From: an uncultured Bacillales bacterium
GTDB taxonomy: Bacteria; Bacillota_I; Bacilli_A; RFN20; CAG-449
Direction: 5' to 3'
Length of the DNA: 64,000 nt
Assembly: GCA_946641515.1 (NCBI GenBank)
Contig: CAMPBT010000003.1
Location: forward strand, 56,079 to 120,078
Of the stretch, positions 38,128 through 53,637 are shown in pieces. Both the position numbers and the translations under genes were made by a program. The notes under the pieces were generated by a model that searched no databases, was not told the DNA's origin, and saw nothing but the letters and a program-made list of their open reading frames with translations. Position 1 is the first letter of the stretch; each line of letters opens with the position of its first letter.

Positions 38128-38152
38128 TTTTTTAAAGACGTTTCGTGCCAAA
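38128..38152 (+). promoter_or_regulatory. conserved TTTTTTAAAGnnTTTCGTGCCAAA box (copy 1) upstream of cassette 1
   Basis: TTTTTTAAAGACGTTTCGTGCCAAA. Related ATGCCAAAAAAATG at 38102-38117. The same box recurs at 49165-49190, 49391-49410, 50763-50841 and, inverted, at 52641-52680. Confidence 0.5.
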
Positions 38153-38270
38153 TTTTTGGATACTTATGTAACGCCTCTACTTTTATATCCTTTTATTAAG
38201 TATGATAATCGAGGCTTTTGAAAAAAGGCACGCGAATAAAATCATTAGTATAAATAAAGGAGAAAGAAAT

Positions 38271-38765
38271 ATGAAGTTATTAAATAGAGTTACATTATTA
38301 TCAGTCTTAGGTATCTCAGCATTAGTAGGTACAGGTTACGCTGCATGGACATTCTCTGCATCAGCAGAAAACAAAACAGCAAACGCAGCACTCTTAATCA
38401 CAGATGCAAACACTGTTGGTGAAATCTCATTCAAAACAAATACAGCAAAATTCACTTTAGATCAATCAGGTATCACATGGGAAGGTGAAATCGTTGCAGA
38501 TTATTCTTCAGTTGGTTCAGAAGTTGAAGATCCATCAATTGAAAAATCATGGACAGCAGCAATTCCTGCAGAATTAGCAACATACGTTACATTCGTAGAT
38601 GCTTCAACAACAATCTCAGGCACATGGGAAGATGATGTTGCAATCGTTTTACCAGAACTCGTTTACACAGCAAACAAGCCAACAACAAAATCAGCTTACG
38701 ATACAATGGTTAGCTTAATCTCAGAATCAAATATCACATTCACATTCTCAGCAACAATTGCATAA
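38271..38765 (+). CDS. small exported TasA/camelysin-like protein with SipW-cognate-type signal peptide (paralog A1)
   Basis: ORF 38202..38765. Start preferred at ATG 38271, with AAAGGAGAAAG RBS. N-terminus MKLLNRVTLLSVLGISALVGTGYAAWTFSAS. C-terminus ...NITFTFSATIA. Paralogous to 50973..51503 and 53022..53507. Confidence 0.7.
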   Translation: MKLLNRVTLLSVLGISALVGTGYAAWTFSASAENKTANAALLITDANTVGEISFKTNTAKFTLDQSGITWEGEIVADYSSVGSEVEDPSIEKSWTAAIPAELATYVTFVDASTTISGTWEDDVAIVLPELVYTANKPTTKSAYDTMVSLISESNITFTFSATIA

Positions 38766-38865: not shown

Positions 38866-39801
38866 ATGAAAAAAATCAAAATGATCTTAACAGCATTAAT
38901 TGGTGCTCTATTTCTTGGAACAGCCGCTGCTACAGTAGCTACAACAGGATTTGCAGCATGGACATTCTCTTCAAATTCTTACAACACTCAATCAATCAGA
39001 GGTGCAATAAACGAATGGGAATTTGCTTCTTATGAAAGCATCTTTGAATTTGATGAAGAAACAGGAACTATCTTATACATCAAACAAATCATTGATGAAA
39101 ATGGAACAGTCACTGTACCAAATGAAATTAACGGTGTCCCAGTTACACATATTGACAAGTATGCATTTAGCAATCAGCCTAGTTTAACATCAATTGTTAT
39201 CGAAGCAGAAAACTTAACAATTGAAAGCTATGCTTTCTATGGTGACTACAACTTAAAAGAAATCACTTTACCTTCTTCAACAAAATTACTCAAATATTCA
39301 TTTGCTAATTCAGGATCATATAACTCAGATACAAAGACATATTCAATTGACAGCGTTACATTCACAGGAAGCGCTACTGAATTAACAGGTAACCAAGTAT
39401 TCAAAGGATTAGAAATTAACACAATTACAATCCCTGCAATCGTTACTAACGTTGAAAAATCATTCTTCGATGGTGTTGAAGATTACGAAATGATCAATTA
39501 CGGTGGATCTGTTGAAGACTTCGTTGGTACAGATCATAACAACGATACATATTCAATCTTTGAAGGTTTAGTTTATAACTTACGTAATAGAAATGCTGGT
39601 ACATATGCTTACCAAGCTCCAACAGCATTAACAATCTCTGGCAGAGTATTCTACTTAAATCAAAGCAACTTTACACAGAACTTATTACATTACTACGCAG
39701 AAGATGGTTCATATATTGTATATAACTTTAACAATCGTGTTAAGGTTAGCGGCAGCACATACGATAACTCAAATTGCTACTATTATTACATTGCAGAATA
39801 A
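38866..39801 (+). CDS. exported BspA-type leucine-rich-repeat (LRR_5-like) protein with SipW-cognate-type signal peptide (paralog B1)
   Basis: ORF 38839..39801. Start preferred at ATG 38866, with AAAGGAGG RBS. N-terminus MKKIKMILTALIGALFLGTAAATVATTGFAAWTFSS. LRR_5-like repeats (VTVPNEINGVPVTHIDKYAFSNQPSLTSIVI...). Terminator at 39802-39840. Confidence 0.65.
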   Translation: MKKIKMILTALIGALFLGTAAATVATTGFAAWTFSSNSYNTQSIRGAINEWEFASYESIFEFDEETGTILYIKQIIDENGTVTVPNEINGVPVTHIDKYAFSNQPSLTSIVIEAENLTIESYAFYGDYNLKEITLPSSTKLLKYSFANSGSYNSDTKTYSIDSVTFTGSATELTGNQVFKGLEINTITIPAIVTNVEKSFFDGVEDYEMINYGGSVEDFVGTDHNNDTYSIFEGLVYNLRNRNAGTYAYQAPTALTISGRVFYLNQSNFTQNLLHYYAEDGSYIVYNFNNRVKVSGSTYDNSNCYYYYIAE

Positions 39802-40019
39802 AATGCAAAACGGCTCAATGAGCCGTTTTCTTTTGCATTAAGCACAAATTACAATTACATTTATATAAATCTCTTAAATAGGCTTAAACTAATAAATAAC
39901 AAGCATTCACAGTTTAATAATAATATTAAAAATTACAAAGAACATATTTCTCTTTGGCATATTTTTTACATCTAAATAAAGTAAATCGAGTAGGGAGTAA
40001 AATTAGATAATTTCCTCTC

Positions 40020-40560
40020 CCTCTCACACCACGTAACGTGCCGTTCGGCATTACGCGGTTCAACTTACTTTTAAAGTATGCCTTGACATACTTTCCGCTT
40101 CTTCTCCTTTCCGCTTCTAAGATTTATTTCCTACGTATTGGATATTCTTTGAGATACGCTCATACCTTTTCCTGTCGGATATACCTTAGAAACATACATT
40201 TGTTAAAGCGATGTAAATTGTTTGGTCCTTCCTCTACTGAGTACTATGACCTCTGCTGACTTCCTATAGTTCGCTTTTCTAGGATTTCTCCTCTATAGGA
40301 CCTCACGGGATAAGTTATATATCTTTCCTCGTTTACCTACCTAATTTACGGATTAAGATTACGTTTGCCTTTTGGACTTTATTGCTTTTGGTCAACTTGT
40401 CCACTTAATTCGCCTTGATATTAGGTTTCTATTCGTTAGGCCACGATTTCGCTATCCCTTCTTTTCATGCGTAGTTACCTAGAGGCACTTTGGGAGTCGC
40501 TATCGGGTTGGTCGGCAAATACCTCTCTTCGGACTTTCATCGTAGATATATGACATGCCC
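40020..40560 (-). ncRNA. ORF-free, strand-asymmetric (purine-rich on minus strand) structured region; candidate large ncRNA of unassigned class
   Basis: About 540 nt with no credible ORF; the 73-aa frame at 40038..40259 is low-complexity. Multiple local hairpins, e.g. CGTAATGCCGAACGGCACGTTACG and GAAAGTATGTCAAGGCATACTTT. Bounded by the LRR-gene terminator at 39802-39840 and the rpsR terminator at 40566-40600. Strand assignment is tentative. Confidence 0.3.
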
Positions 40561-49464: not shown

Positions 49465-50499
49465 ATGACCACTTTTGCAACAGTAATTGTATTAATTATA
49501 TTGTCATTAATTATTTTCGCCTTTATTGGCGTTGCGTTATATTCTATTTTTAAATCAGAAAAAATTATTGTAAGTAGAAAAGAACGTGACCAGTTGATAA
49601 TTAAAGAACAGCAAAAAGAAAAGAAACCATCTAAAGCATCTAAAACTACTTCAATAGTATTTACAATCATTGGATATGTCATTGTATTTGGAATCTTAAT
49701 CTTTGAAGGATTTGCAGTTATTACTAATTCATCAAATAACTTATTGTTCATCGGAAACAATGCAAATTTAGTAGTAGCATCAGATTCTATGTCTACTATT
49801 GATAGTTCCGCTCAATTAGAAGCAAATGGTGGTTATTTGACAGACGATATGTTAAATGACCAATTCCAGATTGGAGATATTCTCTCTTTCTCAAAATTAC
49901 CATCTACAGAAAAAGAATTATTATCTTATACAGAAACCGGAGAACTAGAATATGTTGATGAATTAAATAAAAAAGTCAATTCTCCATATTTATATAAAGT
50001 ATTCGCATTCAAATACACTTTACCTGAAAAAGGTGAATCAATCGTATTACATAGACTTGTAGAAATTAGAGAAGTCTCTACTGCAAGTGGATCAACATAT
50101 CAATATGTTTTCATAGGAGATAAATATCCAAAATCAAGCCAAGTAGTAACTTATAAGAGTTTACTAGGTATTTATACTAGAGGAAGAATATCAGGGCTCG
50201 GATATCCAATTTTATTCTTAGGATCTGCTTATGGAGCCTACTCAGTTCTTGGAGCGTTATTCATTATTATCGCGACATCATACTTTACTAAAAAATTATC
50301 TAAGCTCTATTCAGATAGATATGACCAAATCAAAAAAGAAAAATTCGATACAGAATTCTCTTCAGACACATTTAAGAATCGTAGGCATGAAGTAGAAGAA
50401 AAAGTAATCGAAGCTGAAGAAGTTAAAGTCATCCCAAAAGATCATCAATCTCAAGAAGATGATAATTCAGATATTGGAAGTCTAAAGAAGAGAGATTAA
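49465..50499 (+). CDS. candidate ER/archaeal-type (SipW-like, Ser/His) signal peptidase I with extended architecture
   Basis: 344 aa. N-terminal TM (FATVIVLIILSLIIFAFIGVALY). Box-B-like VVASDSMSTI (Ser). Box-D-like IVLHRLVEI (His, not Lys). GDK segment. C-terminal TM (ILFLGSAYGAYSVLGALFIIIATSYF), as in SipW. Sits between cassettes of SipW-cognate-signal proteins. RBS AAGGAGGG. Confidence 0.5.
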   Translation: MTTFATVIVLIILSLIIFAFIGVALYSIFKSEKIIVSRKERDQLIIKEQQKEKKPSKASKTTSIVFTIIGYVIVFGILIFEGFAVITNSSNNLLFIGNNANLVVASDSMSTIDSSAQLEANGGYLTDDMLNDQFQIGDILSFSKLPSTEKELLSYTETGELEYVDELNKKVNSPYLYKVFAFKYTLPEKGESIVLHRLVEIREVSTASGSTYQYVFIGDKYPKSSQVVTYKSLLGIYTRGRISGLGYPILFLGSAYGAYSVLGALFIIIATSYFTKKLSKLYSDRYDQIKKEKFDTEFSSDTFKNRRHEVEEKVIEAEEVKVIPKDHQSQEDDNSDIGSLKKRD

Positions 50500-50762
50500 G
50501 ACTCACTACCGTTCAAAATGGACGGTAGTTTTTTTATTATAAAATCACTTTGCAAATTACTTATAATCTGTAAAGTTACAAACGTTTATCCCAAAAAATG
50601 TTAAACTTTTAACCCTACATTTGTAACATTTTTGGTATAAAACTGAAAGTGTATCTCTCAATGGAGCATCAAGAAAAGAACATTTGTTCCTTTCTTTGAT
50701 TTTCGAGTCAAATTTTTACTATTTTAAAAAGGAACATTTTAACATATTTCGTTTAAAATCTT

Positions 50763-50841
50763 GTCGTTTTGTGCCAAATATTAGTTACATTGTGCCAGTG
50801 TTTGAATAATTTTATGTTAAATTGGTCGTTTTGTGCCAAAT
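50763..50841 (+). promoter_or_regulatory. three CGTGCCA-family boxes (GTCGTTTTGTGCCAAAT x2 plus TTGTGCCAGTG) upstream of cassette 2
   Basis: GTCGTTTTGTGCCAAAT at 50763-50779 and 50825-50841. ACATTGTGCCAGTG at 50787-50800. Confidence 0.5.
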
Positions 50842-50972
50842 TTAGAAATTCCTATGAAAATTGCCTTTTTATAGCCTAAATCTATTATATGATGAAGGTG
50901 TCTTCAGGAGAGGAAGATAAAAACTAACCCATCTATTAAATGGATTAATTAAATAAAAGGAGAGTAATTATT

Positions 50973-51503
50973 ATGAAATTATTAAATAGAGTCACATTAG
51001 TATCAGTCTTAGGCGTAGCAGCTGTCATCGGTACAGGTTACGCTGCATGGACATTCTCAGCAGACACAACTGCAAACGCTAACGCAAATGTATTAATCAC
51101 ATCAGCATCAGAACAGGCAGGTACAATCACATTTGATAAAACTGTTAAATTAGTACTTGATCAAGGTTGGATTGGTTGGATTGATGCAGGAGTAGCTCCA
51201 AAAGATGCATACACTAACGAAGATGCACTTGCTTCAATCGTACCAACATTAACTCCATATGCAGGTTCTGAAACATTAGTAAGCGAATACGCATTAACTT
51301 GTTCAGTTAATTACGGCAATTTTACAAATTACTTAAACTTCGGTGCTTTCGCAACAACATGGGAATCAGGTTCAGCAGTTGCTTTACCAACAGTTTCTTG
51401 GAAAGATGGAATGAAGCCAACAACATTAACTGAATACAATACAATGAAAACTGCACTTCAAAATTTACAAATTGTCTTTACATTTAATGCAGACGTTGCT
51501 TAA
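50973..51503 (+). CDS. small exported TasA/camelysin-like protein with SipW-cognate-type signal peptide (paralog A2)
   Basis: 176 aa. MKLLNRVTLVSVLGVAAVIGTGYAAWTFSAD. C-terminus ...QIVFTFNADVA. The first about 100 nt are roughly 85% identical to 38271... at the DNA level. Confidence 0.7.
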   Translation: MKLLNRVTLVSVLGVAAVIGTGYAAWTFSADTTANANANVLITSASEQAGTITFDKTVKLVLDQGWIGWIDAGVAPKDAYTNEDALASIVPTLTPYAGSETLVSEYALTCSVNYGNFTNYLNFGAFATTWESGSAVALPTVSWKDGMKPTTLTEYNTMKTALQNLQIVFTFNADVA

Positions 51504-51640: not shown

Positions 51641-52489
51641 ATGAGAAAGCATAAATTTTTAACTTTCCTATTAGCGTACAGTATCCTTTTTAGTGGTGTA
51701 ATGCTTAGTAGTTACGCTACTAAAGGCTATGCAGCCTTTACTTTCAGCGCTGAATCAACTAGTATAAATCCTGTTCCAACAGTAGTAACAAATTGGACAT
51801 TCAACAATCAAGAGCCAGGAACAACTATTGTAATCGATGGAAATGGTAATGCTACAATTTCTGGTGGAGAGCATGATGGTGAATCAGTAGAAATTACATA
51901 CGTTACTGATGATGAAGGAAATAGTTTAATCAATAATGGTTCTGTAACAACACAAATTGAAATTAATGAAGACGGAACAGTTTCAATCACTCAATTTGAT
52001 GTCACACCTGGATCAGGTTCAATTGGAGACATCAATTATATCTTCTATGGTGAAACTTTATATTTACCAAGCCAATACGTTATTGATGGGCAAGTATATC
52101 CTGTTTCTTCATTAGATCAACCGCTTAAAGTTGAAAAAGCTAAACTTTTAATTGGCATTGCAGCAGTTAACAATGTAATTGTACCTGAAGGATATGTATC
52201 CTTATGTGCTGAAGCATTCTACGGTAACAATTGTTCTTTCAAAACTCCAGTAGCCTTTAATTTACCTTCAACATTAACAAGTATTGGATATCACGCAATT
52301 GATTTAGCAGATAGCCCTAAAATTAATTACGCAGGTACAAAAGCTCAATTTAGAGCATTATCAAATAACTCCGGTAACTGGGTAGGAAGATCAAGCGGAT
52401 CTAACAATACTATTACAGTAACTTGTTCAGACGGAAATTTAACTGTAAGATACAATAATAATAATAATGGTACAATAACTATTTCTTAA
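51641..52489 (+). CDS. exported BspA-type LRR (LRR_5-like) protein with SipW-cognate-type signal peptide (paralog B2)
   Basis: 282 aa. MRKHKFLTFLLAYSILFSGVMLSSYATKGYAAFTFSAE. LRR_5-like segment IVPEGYVSLCAEAFYGNNCSFKTPVAFNLPSTLTSIGYHAI. C-terminal INYAGT motif shared with B1 (INYGGS). Confidence 0.65.
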   Translation: MRKHKFLTFLLAYSILFSGVMLSSYATKGYAAFTFSAESTSINPVPTVVTNWTFNNQEPGTTIVIDGNGNATISGGEHDGESVEITYVTDDEGNSLINNGSVTTQIEINEDGTVSITQFDVTPGSGSIGDINYIFYGETLYLPSQYVIDGQVYPVSSLDQPLKVEKAKLLIGIAAVNNVIVPEGYVSLCAEAFYGNNCSFKTPVAFNLPSTLTSIGYHAIDLADSPKINYAGTKAQFRALSNNSGNWVGRSSGSNNTITVTCSDGNLTVRYNNNNNGTITIS

Positions 52490-52640
52490 TTCCCCTATTA
52501 ACAAATTGTAAACTCATCTATATAATAAAAGTGTAGATGAGTTTTTTTATTAAATAATTAAAAAGAGATAAATTGATAATTTTGTTAAAGAAAATAATAT
52601 TGAATATGATACATTCAATTCTTAATGATAAATATAAAGT

Positions 52641-53021: not shown

Positions 53022-53507
53022 ATGAAACTCACAGCAAAATTAAATTTAGTTAGCATTCTTGGTTTAACAGCTATTGTTGGTGTTGGCTACGCAGCGTTTA
53101 CTTTCAGTGACGACGCTACTATATCTTCTCTCTCACAAGCTCATATCACTCAAGTACAAGAATTCGGTGAAGTCGAAGTTACAAATACAAATCTTAACAT
53201 TGTATTAGATCAAAAAGAAATCACATGGACTGGTTCAGTCAAAGCAGTTAGAAAAGGTCAATGTGCTAACTTAGATACTACTAATACATGGACTGCTACA
53301 TTATCAGATAATTTAGCATACTACGTTAGATTTGCAGGTGATGCATCTACTTATACAAACGTTGTTTGGGAAGATAACGTTGAAATTTCTCTTCCTAAAC
53401 TTGAATATGTTGAAGAACATAAACCAACAACATTATCACAATATAATGTAATGACAAGTGTTCTTGCAGGCGAAATGGTTAATTTCTCATTCACTGCAGC
53501 AAAATAA
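53022..53507 (+). CDS. small exported TasA/camelysin-like protein with SipW-cognate-type signal peptide (paralog A3, singleton)
   Basis: 161 aa. MKLTAKLNLVSILGLTAIVGVGYAAFTFSDD. C-terminus ...VNFSFTAAK. Shares the internal HKPTTLSQYNVM motif with A1 (KPTTKSAYDTM) and A2 (KPTTLTEYNTM). Confidence 0.7.
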   Translation: MKLTAKLNLVSILGLTAIVGVGYAAFTFSDDATISSLSQAHITQVQEFGEVEVTNTNLNIVLDQKEITWTGSVKAVRKGQCANLDTTNTWTATLSDNLAYYVRFAGDASTYTNVVWEDNVEISLPKLEYVEEHKPTTLSQYNVMTSVLAGEMVNFSFTAAK

Positions 53508-53599: not shown

Positions 53600-53637
53600 A
53601 AAAAAGTTTCCCAAAGGAAACTCTTTTTTTATTTTTA
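53600..53637. terminator. bidirectional intrinsic terminator
   Basis: AAAAAGTTTCCCAAAGGAAACTCTTTTTTTATTTTT. Serves cassette 3 on the plus strand and the BI-1-like gene on the minus strand. Confidence 0.8.

Follow-up and report, generated by a model that had tools for sequence, protein, structure and literature searches.

In the variable surface lipoproteins Vlp, Vsp and Vsa of Mycoplasma, a conserved 5' region and signal peptide are carried on variable bodies, and pilE/pilS and vlsE are established cases of antigenic variation by gene conversion. An arrangement of this kind was proposed in an earlier note for an uncultured Bacillales bacterium (assembly GCA_946641515.1, contig CAMPBT010000003.1, positions 56,079 to 120,078; this whole 64,000-nt stretch is hereafter called the window). 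Two paralogous genes, here referred to as A1 and A2, were described as having near-identical 5' ends and strongly diverged remainders, which was taken to imply gene conversion or recent duplication of a cassette. Our analysis of these genes, of a third paralog (A3) and of two accompanying secreted genes (B1 and B2) points to a different cause. We consider it probable (about 0.75) that all five proteins are substrates of a SipW-like signal peptidase encoded at 49465-50499, and that their shared 5' ends encode the signal peptide of these substrates.

The closest described counterpart is the TasA-SipW system. The cleavage site of TasA, VGGGTWA/AF (a slash marks the cleavage position here and below), has Trp at P2 and Phe at P2', is handled poorly by LepB, and is cleaved by SipW, an endoplasmic reticulum (ER)-type signal peptidase, the Ser-His dyad being the mark of this type (PMC10269814). 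Past the cleavage site, residues 28-38 of TasA form the donor strand that polymerizes the fiber, and the N terminus of TapA is similar (PMC9674648). The window resembles this system in that the gene of a SipW-type peptidase lies in a cluster with those of the presumed substrates, and in that several substrates share one unusual site, Ala occupying P1 and P1' and an aromatic residue P2 and P2' (VGTGYA/AWTFS in the window). Further, as in TasA and TapA, the conservation of the leaders extends beyond the cleavage position to the start of the mature protein. Compared with SipW, however, the window peptidase, at 344 aa and with insertions, is considerably longer, and it scores under the curated SipW cut-offs; the partner is a BspA-type leucine-rich-repeat (LRR) protein, which sets the locus apart from TasA-TapA; and the hosts are uncultured low-GC Bacilli or "Mollicutes" represented by metagenome-assembled genomes (MAGs).

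The shared 5' ends and the signal peptide

The 5' ends of A1 and A2 (coordinates of all features in Table 1) were confirmed, and their similarity is well above chance. It falls short of the near-identity claimed for them, with only a few synonymous changes over about 100 nt: 77 of the 90 nt from the start codon match, as 38/41, then 7/16, then 32/33, and the 13 mismatches account for five amino-acid replacements (L10V, I15V, S16A, L18V, V19I) and, in five further codons, synonymous changes. With the E-value limit set to 1e-20, a single BLASTN match connects the two loci (82.5% over 114-120 nt, 38249-38360 against 50944-51062), reaching about 22-29 nt upstream of the ATG codons. The same leader match is the longest direct repeat found by a repeat search of 36.5-54 kb (101 nt, 83%), and the longest exact word common to both cassettes is 29 nt. 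The remainders of the genes have indeed diverged strongly, the bodies being 32-35% identical in amino acids and about 49-53% in nucleotides, and BLASTN and shared-word comparison of the two loci found no intergenic similarity except a 15-nt motif.

Each of these leaders reads as a hydrophobic core followed by V-G-[TS]-G-[FY]-A/A-[WF]-T-F-S. In a six-frame scan of the window, G[YF]AA[WF]TFS after a hydrophobic stretch occurs in exactly five open reading frames (ORFs), namely A1, B1, A2, B2 and A3. All five leaders fit the pattern of a SipW-cognate site, scored as a hydrophobic core, a Gly-rich turn, aromatic P2, Ala at P1, Ala at P1' and aromatic P2' (GTGYA/AW, TTGFA/AW, KGYA/AF and VGYA/AF). 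Two other kinds of signal were rejected: a type IV prepilin signal by eye, as there is no G/F-T-L-x-E before the hydrophobic core, and a lipoprotein signal, as there is no Cys. In the mechanism that we propose, recognition by the peptidase would pin almost every residue of the leader, these genes would draw on a narrow set of codons, and the exposed immunoglobulin (Ig)-like bodies would diverge freely under relaxed or diversifying selection. Fixed residues and narrow codon use would then leave the leader DNA about 80-86% identical, among paralogs and among species alike. The local similarity would then have an ordinary cause, strong purifying selection on a leader, and A1 and A2 would be alike at their 5' ends because both encode the same specialized secretion signal.

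Comparison with other species carries this reading. In two other species (loci L014 and L017), whose peptidase is 57-59% identical to that of the window, the gene at the A2 position carries the same leader type. The leader of window A2 matches the leaders of these genes at 24-25 of 30 residues and 72-73 of 90 nt, with bodies only 26-28% identical in amino acids (25/30, 72/90 and 26% for L014), and the leader of window A1 matches them at 71-72 of 90 nt (23/30 residues and 72/90 nt for L014). The within-genome value of 77/90 is statistically indistinguishable from the between-species 72-73/90 (p=0.43). As the signal is conserved across species, the similarity of A1 and A2 does not point to a recent event of DNA copying. 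Codon use agrees: where A1 and A2 share a degenerate amino acid, they use the same codon at 18 of 23 positions in the leader and at 28 of 42 in the body (p=0.40), and a modest excess of same codons is likewise found in the bodies and between species. Most of the leader identity thus follows from amino-acid conservation combined with narrow codon use. All 13 type-specific leader bases are kept in strains that have diverged by 6-9% (L013 for A1, L034 for A2): no homogenization took place over that time scale. Finally, B1 and B2 can be aligned only over about 85 N-terminal residues, at 32% identity; together with flanks that share just the 15-nt motif, this indicates that the cassettes as wholes are old. 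On these four grounds, the view that the 5' identity implies gene conversion or recent cassette duplication is not upheld.

The A family and its linked putative peptidase

The constant leader is not peculiar to the A1/A2 pair. A HMMER search with an alignment of A1, A2, A3 and close relatives recovered 245 clusters (E≤0.001), mostly full-length and 160-230 aa long. With clustering at 50% identity, this puts the size of the A family at 245 clusters or more, all of them coming from uncultured low-GC Bacilli. The related records are metagenome contigs or MAGs labeled as uncultured Bacilli, Mollicutes, Bacillales or Staphylococcaceae bacterium, with no cultured representative among them, and where the sources name the full-length A, B and peptidase proteins they annotate them as "hypothetical protein". 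No credible Pfam family was found in 89 sampled members. An N-terminal logo of a hydrophobic core followed by V-G-[TS]-G-[FY]-[AS]-A-W-x-[FY] is present in 131 of 148 representatives, with conservation at successive motif positions of 94% (G), 88% (G), 85% (F/Y), 96% (A/S), 85% (A), 96% (W) and 97% (F/Y); motif residues G20 and W26 are among the nearly invariant residues of the 89-sequence alignment. The combination of a constant leader and a variable body is therefore a property of the family across taxa.

Among the six window proteins scanned against Pfam and NCBIfam, the only match was LRR_5 in B1 (E 4.5e-15), and A1, A2 and A3 had none; the L014 ortholog of B2 gives a weak LRR_5 match. The length of B1 (311 aa) agrees with the gene call in metagenome contigs. 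An AlphaFold2 (AF2) model of A1 (predicted local distance difference test, pLDDT, 80) shows a beta-sandwich over approximately residues 40-164, with residues 22-38 disordered (pLDDT<50). This modeled disorder is compatible with a free N-terminal extension, although it proves nothing. A1-A3 do not belong to the TasA/camelysin family (Peptidase_M73) by Pfam, a profile search of the PDB gave no relevant match, and a TasA-like jellyroll fold was not found in the three proteins.

The leaders show some further variation within and between species. All five window paralogs have Ser after T-F (38352-38354, 38965-38967, 51054-51056, 51746-51748 and 53106-53108), spelled TCT, TCT, TCA, AGC and AGT, and all six paralogs of L014 and L017, as well as L020, have Asn there. 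As the Ser codons differ, co-selection is favored over conversion here, and the Ser/Asn pattern has the appearance of a site selected together with the peptidase or with an assembly partner. B2 (51725-51761) and A3 (53085-53121), which are unrelated and lie 1.3 kb apart, both have Phe rather than Trp at P2' and share GGC TAY GCA GCS TTT ACT TTC AGY (78% over 37 nt), while their L014 and L017 orthologs carry Trp; micro-conversion or parallel change are both possible. Between species A3 shows the opposite of the A2 pattern: its leader (53022-53111) matches L014:13171-13260 and L017:9688-9777 at only 16 of 30 residues, whereas its body is 65-69% identical. In a "Mollicutes" MAG (L031:3468-8349), four tandem ORFs with the same leader lie beside a peptidase homolog, and in L032:2849-5587 and L033:3-2795 ORFs of about 900 aa begin with it, suggesting that the signal is also used on other protein architectures.

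The ORF at 49465-50499, upstream of A2, contains a Ser box (S-x-S-M), a His box (H-R) and a downstream G-D box; the dyad would thus be Ser-His instead of Ser-Lys. In an alignment, SDSMS (S106-D-S108-M-S110), H196-R197 and G218-D219 are invariant in five homologs down to 28% identity, and S108 and H196 are the putative catalytic residues. The connection to SipW was made through MAG loci found via the A-family motif, in which an A gene is directly followed by a 255-aa protein (L023:6598-7365). The profile of the window ORF aligns with this protein in hhalign at a probability of 99.8% (E 1.9e-30, 247 columns). The L023 protein, in turn, matches the NCBIfam SipW model NF046067 at E 5.8e-13 and its counterpart P0009 does so at E 2.1e-10, L025 falling in this same range; TIGR02228 is matched as well. 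Further, wherever the flank was long enough to tell, in 14 loci (the window, L014, L017, L020, L021 and L023-L031), a peptidase homolog adjoins an A-family gene. Homology through L023 and P0009 and this constant linkage lead us to read the window ORF as a divergent ER/archaeal-type peptidase dedicated to the A and B proteins. Judged by its sequence, it is a superfamily homolog and not a SipW equivalog. By analogy with TasA, the enzyme would cleave these leaders at A/A, and the conserved mature start AWTFS... may serve assembly, possibly as a TasA-like donor strand. Among the matches listed in a literature search linking SipW to Mollicutes, RF39 or Erysipelotrichales, no paper involved SipW.

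Alternative explanations of the 5' similarity

Several observations weigh against the assignment of the leaders to a SipW-like peptidase. The window ORF has no direct signal-peptidase hidden Markov model hit and no match to the SipW model at E≤1; its sole match to a model named for a signal peptidase is marginal (LepB-type NF008114, E 0.19, 11 bits against a cut-off of 277), and its relatives score under the curated cut-offs (40-49 bits against 190 for NF046067, 28-37 against 51.85 for TIGR02228). Searches of PDB sequences with the single sequence and with the profile gave no match, and an AF2 model from five sequences is poor (pLDDT 50.4) and unfit for a fold search; with this low confidence, it predicts helices at the N terminus (2-33 and 57-90) and near the C terminus (255-298). 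Six 48-residue N termini gave no match to NCBIfam signal-peptide models at E≤10, and the cleavage between A and A is a prediction whose position is drawn from analogy. At the level of DNA, the 18 of 23 same codons in the leader exceed the expectation from independent draws, which is 10.8 by window-wide usage (P=0.002), 11.9 by the usage of the A and B genes (P=0.008) and 13.6 by that of the A genes (P=0.04). The 33-nt motif block matches at 32 positions within the genome, yet shows several synonymous differences between species. Shared ancestry or conversion may therefore have added a small share to the leader identity.

These last two observations also speak for gene conversion or homologous exchange, which would keep the leaders of A1 and A2 alike and could move bodies between expression sites: the block contains a 29-nt exact word and includes synonymous sites that differ in the L014 and L017 orthologs. 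In the A1/A2/A3 triplet, the balance of informative sites also shifts near nt 132, from 43 vs. 7 on its left to 57 vs. 69 on its right (permutation p=0.0001). This maximum chi-square breakpoint was rejected as proof of recombination, as it is accounted for just as well by how rapidly the A3 leader diverges between species. We regard conversion as unlikely, since leaders are as alike between species as between paralogs, the 13 differences persist in diverged strains, and A1 and A2, both on the same strand, each have their own start, Shine-Dalgarno sequence, promoter-like sites and terminator. Neither a recombinase, nor silent or promoterless donor cassettes, nor invertible segments were found among the annotated neighbors and in the repeat search, and the inverted repeats in 36.5-54 kb do not exceed 35 nt and are AT-rich and imperfect. 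It is very improbable, in our estimate, that A1-B1 is a recent duplicate of A2-B2 whose bodies raced apart under positive selection before the leader had time to change. Such a history would fit the fast evolution of the A2 and B2 bodies and the synteny of L014, where an acetyltransferase gene takes the place of A1-B1 beside rpsR, so that a lineage-specific gain is possible; but the A1 and A2 bodies are no closer to each other than to A3 or to the genes of other species, their synonymous sites are as saturated as in cross-species pairs, the flanks share nothing beyond the 15-nt motif, and B1 and B2 barely align, LRR_5 being detected in the body of B1 and undetected in that of B2. We give equally little credence to a constraint on the nucleotides of the 5' coding region that is independent of the protein, such as mRNA structure, translation initiation or a regulatory RNA site. 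The similarity does begin upstream of the ATG and takes in the ribosome-binding-site region, and only one synonymous change occurs in 60 A1/A2 leader codons between diverged strains. When five genes are pooled, however, synonymous change is no rarer in leaders (10/150 codons) than in bodies (43/725; p=0.71), A3, B1 and B2 spell the motif with other codons (TCT, TCA, AGC or AGT for Ser), and no Rfam family matches at the leaders.

The search for chimeras between the A1 and A2 loci, which exchange would leave behind, brought up a single one. The allele P0189 has an A2 body with an exact A1-type leader (R6K, V10L, V15I, A16S, V18L, I19V). Its contig, L035 (JGI 3300041760, 4017 nt), follows the A1 locus (Na_Ca_ex gene, A1 upstream region, A1 leader) as far as the 29-nt word and is A2-B2 beyond it, ending 72 nt past B2. 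It is one chimera among about 22 contigs and the 33 A1/A2 alleles listed, all others being parental and collinear; the reciprocal form (A2 leader, A1 body) is absent among 16 A1 alleles, and a metagenome scan for the 29-nt core found three contigs, all parental. A single crossover of the polarity of L035 would act as a deletion, with the loss of rpsR, ssb, rpsF and the peptidase gene, and the 29-nt repeat is a plausible point for an assembler to mis-join two strain paths. L035 is thus probably an assembly chimera rather than a rare real recombinant. Recombinational switching between cassettes, as raised in the earlier note, has L035 as the one contig in its favor, and L035 cannot be told from a mis-assembly. 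Neither gene conversion nor cassette switching is needed to explain the data, this ambiguous contig being the sole support.

Between strains, the bodies vary to an unusual degree. Compared with strain L010, which is 98.9% identical across 17 kb, A2 differs at 10 codons, all nonsynonymous, and B2 at 22 nonsynonymous and 8 synonymous ones; in the remaining genes together the ratio is 39:62 (Fisher test against other genes, p=1.6e-4 for A2 and p=1.5e-3 for B2). Against the more distant L034, the nonsynonymous to synonymous ratios are 19:9 in A2, 48:19 in B2 and 5:9 in A3. In 16 A2 alleles, 31 positions at residue 33 or beyond are variable, and the six variable positions in the leader all come from one chimeric allele. 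Between diverged strains, 58 of 60 A1/A2 leader codons are unchanged, compared with 232 of 277 in the body (p=0.007). A2 and B2 are probably fast-evolving proteins exposed to host or phage. In this respect, the contrast of constant leader and variable body that had been taken as a signature of antigenic variation does stand, and the proteins look like secreted or surface proteins with fast-changing bodies; the conclusion drawn in favor of conversion is not upheld.

The window accordingly shares with the Vlp, Vsp and Vsa families a near-constant leader, divergent bodies, clustered genes, a low-GC Bacilli-derived lineage, and an excess of amino-acid-changing differences between strains. Unlike in those families, the leaders lack a lipobox cysteine and end in a SipW-type site, a search of the A and B gene bodies turned up no tandem repeats, and neither invertible elements nor long inverted repeats nor a recombinase lie in the vicinity. 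With pilE/pilS or vlsE the locus has in common a short conserved block able to seed recombination and the one chimeric contig. It differs from them in having two or three full, independently expressed genes in place of silent cassettes, a shared block of at most 29 exact nt, and copy differences that are fixed across strains.

Organization of the locus and its significance

The positions of four terminator-like hairpins (Table 1) suggest that the transcription units are probably A1-B1, the peptidase gene, A2-B2 and A3. The 15-nt motif CGTTTYGTGCCAAAT has three matches in the window, one before A1 and two before A2, where chance would give 0.14. It is retained in every strain, among them L013 at 94% identity, and no exact copy was found in L014 or L017. 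We regard it as a candidate common regulatory site.

Table 1. Features of the A/B/peptidase locus, in window coordinates
Feature	Position	Strand	Description
15-nt motif upstream of A1	38139-38153	+	CGTTTCGTGCCAAAT; candidate shared cis-regulatory site
A1	38271-38765	+	164 aa, secreted, unannotated family; ORF and translation
A1 signal peptide	38271-38342 (about codons 1-24)	+	predicted cleavage GYA/AWTFS; Ig-like beta-sandwich body beyond
A1 leader	38271-38360	+	90 nt compared in the earlier note; holds the 29-nt word (38328-38356)
B1	38866-39801	+	311-aa BspA-type LRR protein; TTGFA/AWTFS
Terminator-like hairpin ending A1-B1	39807-39829	+	
Peptidase gene	49465-50499	+	344 aa; divergent SipW/archaeal-type (ER-type, S26B) signal peptidase I, by homology; upstream of A2
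Terminator-like hairpin after peptidase gene	50505-50529		
15-nt motif upstream of A2, two copies	50765-50779, 50827-50841	+	CGTTTTGTGCCAAAT; 62 nt apart
A2	50973-51503	+	176-aa paralog of A1; same leader type, fast-evolving body
A2 leader	50973-51062	+	counterpart of 38271-38360; 29-nt word at 51030-51058
B2	51641-52489	+	282 aa, secreted; TKGYA/AFTFS
Terminator-like hairpin ending A2-B2	52510-52544	+	
A3	53022-53507	+	161-aa third A-family paralog; other leader lineage, MKLTAKLNLVSILGLTAIVGVGYA/AFTFSD
Terminator-like hairpin after A3	53605-53622		

Besides these features, an 800-nt ORF-free gap between the B1 terminator and rpsR contains fragments of group II intron RNA domains at 40225-40484 on the reverse strand (RF02001, 96.6 bits; RF01998, 46.9 bits), with no reverse-transcriptase ORF nearby. 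They are the only matches in an Rfam scan of 37.8-53.7 kb. A number of metagenome contigs from this species break off within window positions 39873-40271, as would be expected of a dispersed repeat. Elsewhere in the window, a tmRNA gene lies at 853-1226 on the reverse strand (tag peptide GNRNQLSYAAC).

A bolder extension of the signal-peptide reading, which we offer as speculation and consider rather unlikely, is that the A proteins are SipW-dependent subunits of an undescribed surface fiber in uncultured gut Bacilli or "Mollicutes". They would assemble by donor-strand exchange through AWTFS..., the LRR protein (B), bearing that same N-terminal strand, would act as an adhesive tip or anchor, the exposed bodies would be under diversifying selection, and the 29-nt core would occasionally exchange A-B bodies as in L035.

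In sum, the A, B and peptidase genes point to a poorly known SipW-dependent secretion and assembly module, in which a divergent SipW-like peptidase is strictly linked with a Pfam-less family of small Ig-like secreted proteins. This would take the pairing of a dedicated ER-type peptidase and its cognate substrates beyond TasA and camelysin, and the tag V-G-[TS]-G-[FY]-A-A-W-x-[FY] may be used for finding the surface proteome of these gut lineages.

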